NCBI GenBank assembly: GCA_016839805.1
Contig: JAEOTO010000032.1
Coordinates: 192,001 to 256,000 of the forward strand
DNA: 64,000 nucleotides
Source: Candidatus Hermodarchaeota archaeon
GTDB lineage: Archaea; Asgardarchaeota; Hermodarchaeia; Hermodarchaeales; Hermodarchaeaceae
Reading direction: 5' to 3'
The position numbers were made by a program, and so were the translations under genes. Under the pieces are notes generated by a model, which made no database searches, was not told the DNA's origin, and saw only the letters and a program-made list of their open reading frames with translations. Positions 31,577-35,264 of this stretch are shown here, piece by piece. The stretch's first letter is position 1. The number at the start of each line of letters is the position of its first letter.

Positions 31577-31647
31577 GGCTCAGTACTCAAGATCCTTATC
31601 ATCCCTAATAGCACGCTACAGGTCGTAAGGGTCAGGTCTTCACAGCC
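31577..31647 (-). ncRNA. Small structured element: C/D-box-like RNA or diverged copy of the tnpB 3'-end (omegaRNA) hairpin
   Basis: GGC-TGTGAAGA...CTGA-GCC K-turn pattern; TAAGGATCTTGAGTAC matches TAAGGATCTGAGTAC at 33712-33726. Confidence 0.45.
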
Positions 31648-31702
31648 AATCTCCAATAAGAATCATATTTTCCTTCCTTTTATGCATTCGCAAAAGAAAA
31701 TA

Positions 31703-31807
31703 TGGTGCGGCTTCCGGGATTTTCGGTGACTTTACAAAGCAGTCAAGCATTCGAACCCGGGTCTCAGGCGTGGGAGGCCTGGGTCATAACCACTAGACAA
31801 AAGCCGC
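31703..31807 (-). tRNA. tRNA-Gly(CCC) with 30-nt T-loop intron (31720-31749)
   Basis: CAGGC-CT-CCC-AC-GCCTG; GGTTCGAA[intron]TCCC; encoded CCA. Confidence 0.9.
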
Positions 31808-31941
31808 ATGGTTCTAATGTGAAGAAGTACCAAGTAAACCTAAAATCATTTTGGTAGATTAATCCTTAGATAACCTATTTTACACCTAAAATGGAAAAAA
31901 ATCTATGAATAGTGTCACGTCCTCACAAGAAGGAATCTATC

Positions 31942-32154
31942 ATGTCTTCCAAAGTTGAAGAGATTGCTATCATCGCCATCATCATTGGTATTGTTTTGAT
32001 TATCGCAGTTACTCTAGCTTGGGTCTTTTTACCTCCACCTACCAATTACACCATAGGAGGAGGGATTTTTGTGGCAGGTGTAATAGTGTTAATTGGTGGG
32101 GTTGTAATAGTTACAACGGCCAGGACCTGTAGAACGAAAGACCTTATAGAATAA
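31942..32154 (+). CDS. Small two-TM membrane protein
   Basis: Two hydrophobic helices separated by PPPTNY; ATG after AAGGA. Confidence 0.65.
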   Translation: MSSKVEEIAIIAIIIGIVLIIAVTLAWVFLPPPTNYTIGGGIFVAGVIVLIGGVVIVTTARTCRTKDLIE

Positions 32155-32355
32155 TGTGGAACGAAGCTTGGACAAGTGGCACAAGTTCTTAACAAATTCG
32201 TTCCTGAAGTCACGCTTCTCAAATCCGTCAAGAGCCACCTCTATGCAAATGCAATTATTGTTGTTCATAGATGGAAAATTTTCCGTGGTGTTTTTTGTAC
32301 TGATTGAAGAGATAATTGACGTAGGTCATCTGTTATTTTGGAGTATAGTTAAAGA

Positions 32356-33714
32356 ATGCAGATTACGGTGTGCGGTAGAATATTTCCTTCAAAAGAAGAA
32401 GCTGGAAAACTGGATCTCCTAATGAAACACCAATCAACTTGTATGCGATCAGCTTACAAACGTATTTGTGAAGGAAAAACCAAATCTGAAATAGACCGAT
32501 TTCTGAAAAATTTGTATCCTGAATTGAACTCCCGTTATCGTAGAGATGGCTATTTCAGAGCGCTGGTCAACTATGAAGTAGCAGTGAAATTAGAAAAAAT
32601 CGGTCTACTTAATTCTATTGAGAAGGTAATATTCGGTGGTCGAAAAAACTTCCAGCGAAGAGAGCAAGGAAAACTTACATCTGAGGAATGGAAACGGCTA
32701 AGGAATAATCAACTTTTTTCAAGGGGCGACAAATCCAAAAAAGGGAATCTTAACCTGCGATTTTTAGAATTAAATGGGCAATTGTTTCTTCGTGTGAATA
32801 CAGGTAATCGTACCTGGGTTAACATACCCGCTTACCTCCCCAAACATGTAGAAGAAATCGTCAACAGTGTAGTACCTTACGGAGTAAGGATCATAAGGAA
32901 AAATGCTTCGTATGAATTACGCGTTAACCGAAGACAAGATTTCGATAATAAATTTAATTTTGAATTAGGGGCGGTGGGTGTTGATTTCAATCATAATACG
33001 GTTGATTTAGCAGTTACCAATAAACAAGGACAACTGAAGAAGCAACGAACAATAAATTGCCAATCATTAACTTGTGCTCGTAAAGGAAAACGGGATTGGC
33101 TAATTGGGAACCTGGTCAAACATATTGTCTATTATGCCAAGTATTGGAAACGGGGACTAGTTATTGAGAATCTGCATAAAGTGACTCAAGGTCAATCAAA
33201 TCACCATGTGTTCACCTATCGAAAATTCTCTGAAGCTATTAAACGACGTGCCAAAAAAGAAGGTGTACAGATTCGAATAATAAATCCTGCATATACCTCT
33301 ATTATAGGACGATGGAAATACGCCCCCTATTATCATCTCACGGTCCATCAATCCGCCGCTTTAGTAATTGCGCGGCGGGGACAGGGCTTTTCCGAACATC
33401 TCCGAAAGCTCAAGTCTTTAGTCCTCGAACCAATGGAAGGAGGAGAGGCTAGAGAGCATTCACCCCGTCGTCGGGTACATGCATGGCGTTTTTGGAAAAA
33501 GTTGGGAAGCCTACCCTCCCATAACGGGATGAACACCCGGCACTCCAACCAACCCTGTAAGATCAATAGGATGGAAAGTTGGAGAACAAGGAGTTCACAC
33601 GAAAATAATCTGGATACAGACGACATATCCAGAGGGAAGATCGTCATCCCTGGTAGCGGTCCATCACAAAGTGATGTGAATAGGATCCTACATTCCTCAG
33701 AAATAGAATCGTAA
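32356..33714 (+). CDS. tnpB: TnpB-related RuvC nuclease (IS200/IS605/IS607 accessory type)
   Basis: KVIFGGRKNF, SRGDKSKKGNLNLR, RuvC-I GVDFN, RuvC-II VIENL, NPAYTS, HQSAALVIARR. Confidence 0.88.
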   Translation: MQITVCGRIFPSKEEAGKLDLLMKHQSTCMRSAYKRICEGKTKSEIDRFLKNLYPELNSRYRRDGYFRALVNYEVAVKLEKIGLLNSIEKVIFGGRKNFQRREQGKLTSEEWKRLRNNQLFSRGDKSKKGNLNLRFLELNGQLFLRVNTGNRTWVNIPAYLPKHVEEIVNSVVPYGVRIIRKNASYELRVNRRQDFDNKFNFELGAVGVDFNHNTVDLAVTNKQGQLKKQRTINCQSLTCARKGKRDWLIGNLVKHIVYYAKYWKRGLVIENLHKVTQGQSNHHVFTYRKFSEAIKRRAKKEGVQIRIINPAYTSIIGRWKYAPYYHLTVHQSAALVIARRGQGFSEHLRKLKSLVLEPMEGGEAREHSPRRRVHAWRFWKKLGSLPSHNGMNTRHSNQPCKINRMESWRTRSSHENNLDTDDISRGKIVIPGSGPSQSDVNRILHSSEIES

Positions 33715-33726
33715 GGATCTGAGTAC
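32356..33726 (+). mobile_element. Non-autonomous tnpB element; right end probably at 33726, left end not resolved
   Basis: Solo tnpB, 3' hairpin GGATCCTAC...GTAAGGATCT, abrupt junction with a tRNA fragment; no transposase nearby. Confidence 0.55.
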
Positions 33727-33760
33727 CAGGCCTAAATCCTGACCACTAGACCACGGTCGC
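33727..33760 (-). pseudogene. Orphan 5' half (positions 1-34) of a tRNA-Gly, probably GCC; disrupted or split tRNA
   Basis: GCGACCG-TG-GTCT-AGTGGTCA-GGAT-T-TAGGC-CT-G parallels tRNA-Gly(CCC); no matching 3' half seen nearby. Confidence 0.7.
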
Positions 33761-33830
33761 GATAAATTGTGTGAAACTGGAAGAAAGACCCTATAATAAT
33801 TTCCGATACTAAGTTCTCTATGGTAAGAAG

Positions 33831-35264
33831 TCAGTTGTCTTCTGTTGCAGGTGGAGAATACCGGTATTGCTGTTGGGTTTTTGCCTTTTCAATAGTTTCA
33901 GGGTCAATCCGTTTGAGTTCACGTTCAGGAAATGTTGAAAGCATTTCCCAACCCAAATCAAGGGTTTGTTCAATAGTGCGTTCTTCGAATTCACCCTGAT
34001 TTAGGAATTGTGTTTCAAACATTTCTATGAAGTTCAAATACACCCGATCCCGGTCTGAGAGGGCCCCTTCACCTACAACTGCCACAAGGTCTCGGAGGTC
34101 TGAACCTTCGCTAGCAGCATAGTATAATTGAGCTTGAACCTCATTATGATCTGCACGAGTATGCCCTTCCCCAATTCCTTCCTTCATTAATCGACTAAGA
34201 CTCGGTGCAGGGTCAATTGGAGGGTAGATTCCTTTATTGTGAAGGGAACGACTTGTAATAAGCTGTCCTTCAGTGATATAACCGGTGAGATCAGCTACTG
34301 GATGCGTAATATCGTCACCGGGCATTGTTAGAATGGGCATTTGTGTGATAGTACCTTTTCGTCCAATGATACGGCCTGCTCGTTCGTAGATAGATGAAAG
34401 GTCTGTATAGAGATATCCTGGATACCCTCTACGACCAGGTACCTCCTCTCGGGCCGCTGATATCTCACGTAGGGCGTTTGCATAGTTGAGCATGTCTGTT
34501 AGTATAACGAGAACATGCATACCCTGTTCAAAGGCTAGATACTCAGCAATTGTGAGGGCAGTTCGTGGTGTAATAATTCGTTCAATCGGAGGATCATCTG
34601 CAAGATTTAACACAAGCACACTTGTGGCTAACGCGCCCGTCTCTTCTAAAGTCTTCATGTAAAATTGCGCAGTTTCAGCTGTAATTCCGATTGCGCAAAG
34701 TATTACGGCAAACTGTTCCTCTTTACCCGGAATTTTTGCCTGGCGTGTGATTTGGGCTGCAACCCGATCATGTGGCAAACCGGAACCACTGAAAATTGGG
34801 AGTTTCTGACCACGAACGAGCGTGTTAAGTCCATCAATGACGCTGAGGCCTGTTTGAATAAATTCTCGTGGATATTGTCTTGCATCGGGGTTCATTGGTG
34901 CTCCATTGAGATCCAATTCGTCATCAGGGACAATCGGTGGTCCCTTGTCAATAGGGATTCCAGAGCCTGTGAGAACTCGTCCGAGTAGATCAATGGTAAC
35001 CGAAGTTCTCATCGTTTCACCAGTAAGACGTACTCGAGTTGCCTTCGTGTCAAGTCCACGAGTTCCTTCAAAAACTTGAACTATTGCACGCCCTCTCATA
35101 GCCTCTAATACAGTACCTCGACGCAGAGTTCCATCTGGTGCAGTTACTTCGACAAGCTCATTGTACGCAACATCTCCTACCTTATCCAGAATTAGCAGGG
35201 GACCTGAGACAGTGGTCACAGTCTGATACGTCGGCTTCAAGGCAGAGGTTTGTTTGTCAGTCAT
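33831..35264 (-). CDS. atpB: A/V-type ATP synthase subunit B
   Basis: [40 protein letters not shown]. Confidence 0.97.

Follow-up and report, generated by a model that had tools for sequence, protein, structure and literature searches.

A TnpB-like element between a tRNA-Gly(CCC) gene fragment and a second tRNA-Gly(CCC) gene in a Hermodarchaeota genome: a putative nuclease-and-rescue cassette

We analysed a window of 64,000 nucleotides from a genome of Candidatus Hermodarchaeota archaeon (GenBank assembly GCA_016839805.1, contig JAEOTO010000032.1, positions 192,001 to 256,000; here genome G000, contig C22; 2.31 Mb, 87 per cent complete). In the spacer between cofE and atpB, this window holds the 5′ part of a tRNA-Gly gene (the stub), an element with a gene for a TnpB-like protein (tnpB) that ends at the stub, and, beyond tnpB and 1.9 kb from the stub, a complete tRNA-Gly(CCC) gene. 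Two differing tRNA-Gly(CCC) genes occur at this spacer among relatives of G000, and we label them type A and type B. Comparison with those relatives shows the stub to be the stranded front of a type A gene that was split by the TnpB-like element, and shows that the block of stub, element and type B gene (the cassette) has crossed between host clades. Our preferred reading, to which we give a probability of roughly 0.55, is that the insertion relic is now part of a unit, composed of a nuclease and a resistant rescue tRNA allele, that replaces the intact gene by recombination. Coordinates of all features are given in Table 1.

On the minus strand, from 33760 to 33728, the stub reads as the acceptor strand GCGACCG, the D arm and the 5′ strand of the anticodon stem, and then continues directly into GGTACTCAGATCC. 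The relatives used for comparison are Asgard metagenome-assembled genomes (MAGs) from marine sediment, labelled Hermodarchaeota or Promethearchaeota. In one of them, G013, the cofE–atpB spacer contains an intact type A gene with a canonical 37/38 intron, a T-loop intron and the acceptor stem GCGACCG/CGGTCGC. Because the stub matches this CCC gene, whose CGGTCGC pairs with GCGACCG, it comes from a CCC gene and not from a GCC gene. The original prediction, made from the letters of the window, had described a 34-nt 5′ half of tRNA-Gly(GCC) cut after G34. A genuine tRNA fragment with a promoter is indeed present, but its ancestral anticodon is CCC, its homology spans 33 nt (of which 30 are certain) and ends after U33, and G34 (33727) is a base of the element. 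Positions 33728–33730 (AGG on the plus strand) belong both to the element's terminal YAGG and to C31-C32-U33 of the tRNA. Since nucleotides 31–33 overlap the family-wide YAGG end, only nucleotides 1–30 are surely tRNA-derived. The same overlap places the crossover at the GG that corresponds to C31-C32, at the edge of the anticodon loop, in agreement with the rule for IS607 elements (PMC13565253). The homology of G013, and of the metagenomic contigs X2 and X3 described below, begins precisely at 33728. The TATA-like box that had been placed about 32 nt upstream was found 30–39 nt upstream, and a box of the TTATTATAGG type also precedes intact type A genes in relatives. The stop codon of tnpB (33712–33714, plus strand) is separated from the stub by 13 nt, one more than first counted. 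A 20-mer from the stub occurs once in the G000 genome. ARAGORN and Rfam (at the gathering threshold), run on the window, called neither the stub nor its intron-bearing neighbour.

An artefact of assembly or binning, joining a tRNA fragment to a copy of an insertion sequence (IS), has to be considered in a MAG, where contigs often break at IS elements; the G005 contigs, for example, end inside tnpB. We give this the slightest of chances. The element is single-copy in G000, with no second copy found in the assembly, and the joint between stub and right end is present in six independent assemblies or metagenomes (G000, G005, L039, L042, G006 and G014). In addition, a separate Logan contig from run X1, which was assembled independently of G000, spans the joint from 33568 to 34100 with 0 differences; run X1 may be the source sample of G000. 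Since the joint recurs in five further assemblies and the X1 contig bridges it, the stub is real and not an assembly artefact, and the mis-assembly that the original prediction had named as its possible undoing falls away.

We read the cofE–atpB spacer in thirteen genomes (twelve extracted in full, and G009 separately) and in the metagenome loci L039 and L042. Intact type A is found in G013, G002, G003, G004, G011 (read from its own contig) and the outgroup genus g2. The stub, a live tnpB and type B occur together in G000, G005 and L039, and L042 has the stub and a live tnpB on a contig that ends before the type B side. G006 and G014 carry the stub, a decayed tnpB and type B; G001, G007, G008, G009 and G012 carry type B alone. 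Intact, degenerate and absent copies of the nuclease gene are all found within one genus, and every cassette has type B, never type A. In the atpB tree, G000 is sister to the type A genome G013 (100/100), the type A genome G002 is nested among cassette bearers, and at least seven changes of state are required.

The closest view of the empty allele comes from contigs of two other studies (X2 and X3), which are 98.4 per cent identical to G000 over 33728–34100, a region in which G013 is 92.2 per cent identical. Left of 33728, both contigs continue into ...CCATCTATGGG, which is intact type A. On the other side, the homology of X3 ends at 31655, the 5′ end of a small RNA (sRNA) downstream of the tRNA. 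Among near-conspecifics, therefore, the 2.07 kb of 31656–33727 and roughly 180 bp of type A sequence occur as alternatives. As type A has lost its 3′ part and the spacer that follows the tRNA is foreign as well, this is a replacement and not a transposition; nor is the locus a simple insertion, given that the 3′ part of the old gene has been replaced by a whole second tRNA-Gly(CCC). The comparison with empty sites in relatives, which the original prediction had called for, thus turned up intact type A at the same locus both in sister species and in near-identical metagenome contigs. Its proposal of an insertion in the anticodon, with an intact target elsewhere, holds in part: the intact allele exists at the same locus in sisters, the guide scaffold abuts the stub and a possible remnant lies at the left end of the element, but the target is not in G000 and the event was not a simple insertion.

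Table 1. Features of the cofE–atpB spacer in the window (positions are those of the 64,000-nt stretch)
Feature	Position	Strand	Basis or remark
Conserved C/D-box-like sRNA, left limit of the replaced segment	31570..31654	-	in 12/12 spacers, with either tRNA type
Segment replacing ~180 bp of the conspecific 'empty' allele (type A nt 34-76, two introns, spacer)	31656..33727	.	limits from X2/X3 contigs and G013
Complete type B tRNA-Gly(CCC), 30-nt T-loop intron (31720-31749), acceptor GCGGCTT/AAGCCGC, CCA encoded	31703..31807	-	Rfam 24.8 bits unspliced
Promoter block of type B (ACCAAAATGATTTTAGG)	31839..31855	-	conserved ahead of all type B genes of the genus
0.4-kb segment in G000 only, with 80-aa hydrophobic ORF (31912-32154, +)	31860..32261	.	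absent from G005, G006 and M039 cassettes
Possible decayed trace of the opposite flank of the insertion site (type A anticodon and start of 37/38 intron, antisense)	32265..32290	+	short match
Non-autonomous IS607-like element, left end TTTTTTGT... (~32291), right end ...TACCAGG	32291..33730	+	shared end motifs
TnpB-related open reading frame (ORF), 452 aa, PF27229/TIGR01766 family; D210, E271, H329, no Zn ribbon	32356..33714	+	profile, fold, alignment
OmegaRNA-like scaffold overlapping the ORF tail, terminal stem 33649-33655/33724-33730	33471..33730	+	11 ends aligned
Relic 5′ part of ancestral type A tRNA-Gly(CCC), nt 1-33 (stub)	33728..33760	-	32/33 match to intact G013 gene
Presumptive guide (flank read-through), antisense to type A nt 30-11	33731..33750	+	directly 3′ of conserved right end
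TATA-like box of the old type A promoter, kept: TTATTATAGG	33790..33799	-	30-39 nt upstream of +1

The cassette and its hosts have diverged to different degrees. Between G005 and L039, synonymous divergence (dS) is 0.43 in tnpB and 0.40 in atpB, and this agreement indicates vertical descent at comparable rates. Between G000 and G005, tnpB has a dS of 0.53 while atpB is saturated, and between G000 and L039 the values are 0.50 and about 2. At the protein level, G000 and the G005 clade share about 67 per cent identity in CofE and 83 per cent in the TnpB-like protein. Because tnpB is far less diverged than atpB in these comparisons, the cassette has moved between the host clades. Right of the stub, the sequence is native to its clade in each case, which puts the right-hand crossover within the 30 nt derived from the tRNA.

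Type B is missed by tRNA scanners because a 30-nt intron lies within its T loop: in the Rfam search it surfaced only at E 0.12. With the intron removed, ARAGORN calls a 75-nt tRNA-Gly(ccc), and spliced type A is likewise called tRNA-Gly(ccc). The two types differ in both acceptor strands, the D stem, the anticodon stem and the variable loop, and type B has no 37/38 intron. The 3′ strand of this neighbour is AAGCCGC, so GCGACCG cannot pair with it, as the original prediction had observed. A duplication of an attachment (att) site by an integrase was rejected as an explanation of the pair: there is no integrase gene from 31.5 to 33.9 kb, similarity of the stub to type B is confined to short stretches, and the two differ in acceptor, D stem and anticodon stem.

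The stub might instead be the functional 5′ half of a split tRNA, trans-spliced to a distant 3′ half as in Nanoarchaeum or Caldivirga. This was the second option of the original prediction, and we now think it very improbable. The promoter is kept, the 5′ part has decayed little, a sequence complementary to the trailer at 15/16 positions is found on the same strand at a distance of 2.1 kb, and the assembly is just 87 per cent complete. Yet the 3′ half that was reported missing left of tnpB is missing from the entire assembly as well: a regular-expression search for a T arm plus CGGTCGC (G-U pairs allowed, with or without CCA) found none across 2.31 Mb. The trailer is the element's conserved right end and is found at unrelated loci, and its only complement (31583–31598, plus strand) is the D-guide of the sRNA in all congeners, followed by more sRNA sequence and not by a tRNA 3′ half. 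The stubs of relatives gather acceptor-stem changes and a deletion. Full tRNA-Gly(GCC) and tRNA-Gly(UCC) genes are present on contig C13 of G000; the former had been singled out beforehand as worth looking for. With these two and the type B CCC gene, 1.9 kb from the stub, all three Gly isoacceptor genes are intact and a split tRNA is not needed. The locus does resemble split and recently split archaeal tRNAs (Chan, Cozen & Lowe 2011, PMC3218864) in having an isolated 5′ half with its own promoter beside mobile DNA. It differs in having no partner half, no leader–trailer helix with a bulge–helix–bulge motif, and an intact gene with the same anticodon.

The protein encoded by the element scores 39.5 bits against the NCBIfam model TIGR01766 ('TnpB-related'; cut-off 32), and the large family to which it belongs carries Pfam PF27229. 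Pfam PF07282 matches only 28 of its residues (E 0.006), a local Pfam-A search gave nothing at E ≤ 0.001, and phmmer against Protein Data Bank sequences gave nothing. In the AlphaFold model (AF2), the predicted local distance difference test score is about 88 in the core and about 30 in the tail, which is disordered. Foldseek with this model recovered Cas12f (E 1e-9) and TnpB (1e-4 to 1e-5; ISDra2 TnpB at 3.5e-5 to 9e-5), and the modelled structure is that of a RuvC-fold TnpB/Cas12 protein. D210 and E271 are invariant in the alignment. At the third RuvC position, all of the archaeal clade has His, and the members from Aquifex and Carboxydothermus have Asp. Some homologues, on Hadarchaeota contigs, lie directly downstream of a serine recombinase gene, which marks them as IS607-type; these also have the His and also lack the Zn ribbon. 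Across G000, G005, L039 and L042, the ratio of nonsynonymous to synonymous divergence (dN/dS) of the protein core is 0.08–0.19 over a dS of 0.43–2.5, values that show the core to be under purifying selection. Decayed copies of the family are found in G006, in G014, on contig C144 of G004 and on contig C20 of G006. The ORFs of G005 and L039 (L003 and L039) are annotated at 461 aa, a length that arises where the frame crosses the element end into the stub; the C-terminal ~100 residues of these 'proteins' are translated guide-RNA scaffold.

The ends of the element were set by comparison. The left-end motif is common to G005, G006, G014 and the copy on contig C20 of G006. The right end reads ...TAC[CT][AT]GG in eleven copies, and the YAGG (in some copies YWGG) is family-wide, with unrelated flanks starting immediately after it. 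IS607 elements end in GG and their TnpB proteins use G-rich target-adjacent motifs (TAMs) such as AGGAG and GAGGG (PMC13565253). The left flanks at two independent sites end in ...TGGGG and ...ACGG at the point of insertion, and the target reads GGGAGG/CC with the slash at that point. The element thus has GG at its end and integrates after GG, as the IS607 rule requires, with no inverted repeats and no target duplication. When we tried to derive a TAM from the left flanks, the terminal GG was the sole common feature of the two independent sites. Neither a serine nor a Y1 transposase (TnpA) was found in the element or anywhere in G000, so this copy is non-autonomous. At the left end, the flank ...TCTGTGGGG of G005 and G006 aligns with type A antisense ...TCTATGGGAGG, and the G000 flank is more decayed (...TTCCGTGGTG). 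This short match suggests that the 26 nt before the element come from the other side of the original insertion site.

The last 260 nt of the element align in eleven copies from several archaeal phyla with 69 per cent column identity. Their consensus fold has fifty-five pairs, with 96 per cent of cells paired, and thirty pairs show compensatory changes, compared with two to six in controls in which the pairing partners were slid by 1–3 columns. Over this scaffold, the ORF tail has a dS of 0.1–0.4 and a dN/dS of 0.5–0.7, and the low dS points to constraint at the RNA level. The predicted right-end RNA has the anatomy of a TnpB omegaRNA. The presumptive guide starts at 33731 (CCTAAATCC...; CCTAAATCCTGACCAC...) and matches type A at 19–20/20 positions (19/20 against G013). 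Against type B it has mismatches at positions 4–6, 9 and 11. The idea that a TnpB guide is aimed at an intact tRNA-Gly gene, which was part of the original prediction, is borne out to the extent that the guide would fit type A; the CAGG with which that guide was made to begin belongs instead to the terminal stem of the scaffold.

The stub varies along its length. Among L003, L039, L042 and L004, its acceptor-proximal 10 nt are altered at 2–4/10 positions. The TAM-proximal 20 nt are changed at 1/20 in live copies and at 3/20 in the dead G006 copy. The leader beside the stub differs by only about 6 per cent between G005 and L039, and the distal part of the stub seems to decay faster than its surroundings.

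Under our preferred reading, these parts would work together as follows. The element's omegaRNA would run on into the stub and so acquire a guide antisense to type A nt 30–11. Together with this guide, the TnpB-like nuclease would cut intact type A beside GGGAGG (the antisense of C31–C36), whether on a sister copy of the chromosome, on incoming DNA or on that of a recipient. The GGGAGG 5′ of the type A target resembles the G-rich TAMs reported for IS607 TnpBs. The break would then be repaired from a copy of the cassette, with the 5′ part of the tRNA as right arm and the sRNA as probable left homology arm. The cassette would escape cutting both at the stub, where CCAGG (the element end) takes the place of the G-rich GGAGG, and at type B, which mismatches the guide at seed positions 4–6. 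Type B, which supplies decoding, would serve as a cleavage-resistant rescue gene. Such immunity by guide mismatch would explain why the rescue gene is always a divergent allele. We infer that cleavage by TnpB would drive the replacement, and that the nuclease would decay after fixation, as in G006 and G014. Homing endonuclease genes go through a known cycle of invasion, fixation, decay and loss. In its fullest form, the reading becomes that of a natural home-and-rescue drive in Asgard (Hermod-type) archaea, in which a transposase-less TnpB-like nuclease, with the stub as guide and homology arm and a guide-resistant tRNA-Gly(CCC) as rescue, would convert intact alleles within and between species through such a cycle. 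We hold this fuller version tentatively, at somewhat short of even odds.

Several observations weigh against this reading. RuvC-III has H329 instead of Asp, a change shared across the archaeal clade, and the Zn ribbon is missing: some 14 residues separate NPAYTS from the RuvC-III helix, and there are no CxxC pairs. At position 11, the guides of G000 and G005 fit none of the known intact type A alleles. In the G005 clade, 5/30 stub positions and 5/80 leader positions differ; the stub is no better conserved there than the leader, which lends no support to selection on the guide. A composite origin of the cassette requires an extra illegitimate join, from the type A intron to the type B promoter. 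No cassette remnants were found in the type-B-only genomes beyond the type B promoter, so these genomes may be the source of type B and not hold decayed cassettes. The assemblies are incomplete MAGs. Finally, ordinary homologous recombination between species, without any nuclease, could give the same allele pattern.

The last point can be extended into an account of the locus as a passive relic. Type B would have rescued a type A insertion, the block would have been exchanged by ordinary homologous recombination, and TnpB would be kept for some other reason or be a recent arrival. We judge this unlikely, though it deserves serious weight. Both crossovers fall within RNA genes of high conservation (the 5′ part of the tRNA and the sRNA), which is where diverged species recombine most easily; in the G005 clade the stub is not measurably above neutral conservation; and the His at RuvC-III, the lack of a Zn ribbon and the lack of TnpA in G000 all fit. 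A useless passenger, on the other hand, would not be expected to show the long purifying selection on the protein or the covariation in the scaffold, and the four decayed copies named above make plain that unselected copies do decay. Moreover, the repeated exchange of a working gene for a 2-kb block needs either an advantage or a drive.

Domestication offers a further account. TldR proteins are TnpB-like, nuclease-dead repressors that are single-copy, transposase-less and equipped with a fixed guide and an altered RuvC motif. A TldR-like factor at this locus would use its fixed anti-tRNA guide to bind the host tRNA-Gly(UCC) gene or a foreign type A segment (for example an attP), in regulation or defence. 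Each genome has a single copy, and in at least five lineages this copy occupies one fixed locus, with no transposase, with purifying selection and with His as the third RuvC residue. The only other near-match of the 20-nt guide in G000 is the tRNA-Gly(UCC) gene, with three mismatches and preceded by GGAAGG. We nevertheless rate domestication as improbable. The recombinase-linked and presumably mobile copies share the His and the missing Zn ribbon, so neither is a mark of domestication. No target in G000 has fewer than three mismatches, and one of the three falls at seed position 3. A matching host promoter target for the guide was not found in G000, and the loss or death of the gene in many congeners speaks against a host function.

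Restorative homing driven by TnpB is established for IS605 and IS607 elements (Meers et al., PMC10055086; Zedaveinyte et al., 10.1101/2023.11.20.567912; review PMC13565253). The locus described here is like those systems in its RuvC-fold TnpB-type protein, its 3′-overlapping structured RNA that ends at the right end, its putatively flank-derived guide, its GG ends, the G-rich motif 5′ of the target and the fit of the guide to the empty allele. It differs in belonging to a Zn-ribbon-less PF27229/TIGR01766 branch with His at RuvC-III; in having no transposase at this locus; in that the 'empty site' is a functional tRNA allele and not a donor site left by excision; and in that the replacing unit includes a rescue tRNA outside the element ends. 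IStrons, which are group I introns fused to an IS605 or IS607 element with TnpB, are alike in placing a TnpB element in a host gene, neutralizing their own damage and having TnpB without TnpA. The retention of TnpB without TnpA in IStrons has been interpreted as homing (PMC13565253). In IStrons the damage is undone by self-splicing of the transcript, whereas here a linked second gene copy, unmatched by the guide, makes good the loss.

In structure, the nearest precedent is the heterogeneous tRNA-Thr(GGU) locus of Caldiarchaeum subterraneum (Sugahara et al. 2012, PMC3293823). Both are population polymorphisms at one locus, with an intact tRNA in some genomes and, in others, a 5′ fragment with its upstream region, a mobile sequence (~1.8 kb in Caldiarchaeum) and a second version of the tRNA with different introns. 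There, the 3′ region of the new gene is native and the element gives only nt 1–27 and an intron; here, the whole tRNA differs, with both acceptor strands compensated. There, the mobile sequence has an unclassified 271-aa ORF, and a guide RNA or nuclease was not considered; here, the mobile gene is TnpB-like.

Synthetic cleave-and-rescue and home-and-rescue drives direct an RNA-guided nuclease against a needed gene and link it to a recoded, guide-resistant copy at the target locus. The putative system in G000 would be natural and prokaryotic, and its rescue is a naturally divergent allele with compensated stems instead of a designed recoding. Unlike in TldR, the RuvC change here is also present in transposase-linked relatives, and the gene is often lost or degraded. 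A literature search found no paper tying TnpB to an anticodon-loop insertion or to a linked guide-resistant rescue, and none mentioning SSO2105. What is new relative to IS607 and IStron homing is the linked, guide-resistant rescue of a whole gene, and it is of interest chiefly if the nuclease step holds.

If it does, TnpB nucleases would persist without a transposase by driving allelic replacement of a gene of an essential class, with host fitness guarded by a linked resistant copy and not by splicing as in IStrons; this is an architecture that synthetic biologists devised independently for gene drives. The locus would also offer a testable route for the gain and loss of introns, the fragmentation and the replacement of archaeal tRNA genes, a question as old as the first finding of split tRNAs, and would allow the tRNA-Thr locus of Caldiarchaeum to be reinterpreted. 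In addition, a compact (~350-aa core), Zn-ribbon-less, His-variant branch of TnpB would have a defined natural guide and target. Even by itself, the structural reading explains the orphan half-tRNA and shows that a tRNA locus has passed horizontally between Asgard archaea.

Two further features lie to the left of tnpB. The sRNA is 85 nt long, is closed by a terminal stem of 11 bp and has a C box (GUGAAGA), a D box (CUGA) and, internally, a C′-like box. It had no match in Rfam, and no perfect complement of either of its guides was found in the G000 assembly, from which rRNA genes may be missing. Positions 31583–31598 and 33713–33727, both read on the plus strand, form an inverted repeat with 15/16 matches. 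Its left arm coincides with the D-guide of the sRNA, its right arm with the right-end consensus of the element (GGAATGTAAGGGTTTGAGTAC family-wide). As the left arm is an sRNA guide in all congeners and the right arm a family-wide end, the repeat was rejected both as a pair of terminal repeats and as a split-tRNA leader. The sRNA guide is complementary to a putative antisense transcript beginning at the stub promoter. The second feature, the 0.4-kb segment restricted to G000, has no real match in fourteen congeners, and its 80-aa ORF has no significant Pfam match.

Other members of the element family also occur near tRNA genes. A degenerate copy with two in-frame stops lies at about 1364–2750 of locus L014 (contig C20 of G006), in a record named Ca. 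Hermodarchaeum yapensis. It sits after CGG, between the promoter and the +1 of a tRNA-Gly(UCC) gene and in the same orientation as the tRNA, so that transcription from the tRNA promoter would enter the element, whose guide would consist of tRNA nt 2–21 in the sense orientation. Among distant members, L069 (an Actinomycetota MAG) has a tRNA-Gly(CCC) about 850 nt downstream, and L058 (an Iainarchaeum MAG) has an intron-bearing tRNA-Arg(CCU) about 250 nt upstream. At eighty further family loci, adjacent tRNAs were scattered cases with no family-wide link.

Two observations concern other tRNA genes. The tRNA-Gly(UCC) gene has a T-loop intron in G002, G005, G006 and G014 (L133, L134, L136 and L014) and none in G000 (contig C13, 19738–19812) or G013; the position of this presence–absence polymorphism is the same as that of the T-loop intron in tRNA-Gly(CCC). 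Last, contig C22 carries, beyond the window at 155116–155190, a tRNA-Glu-like sequence that keeps to the normal pattern as far as the T loop (…GGTTCGAATCC) and diverges after it; this may be a second truncated tRNA or an att-type remnant.

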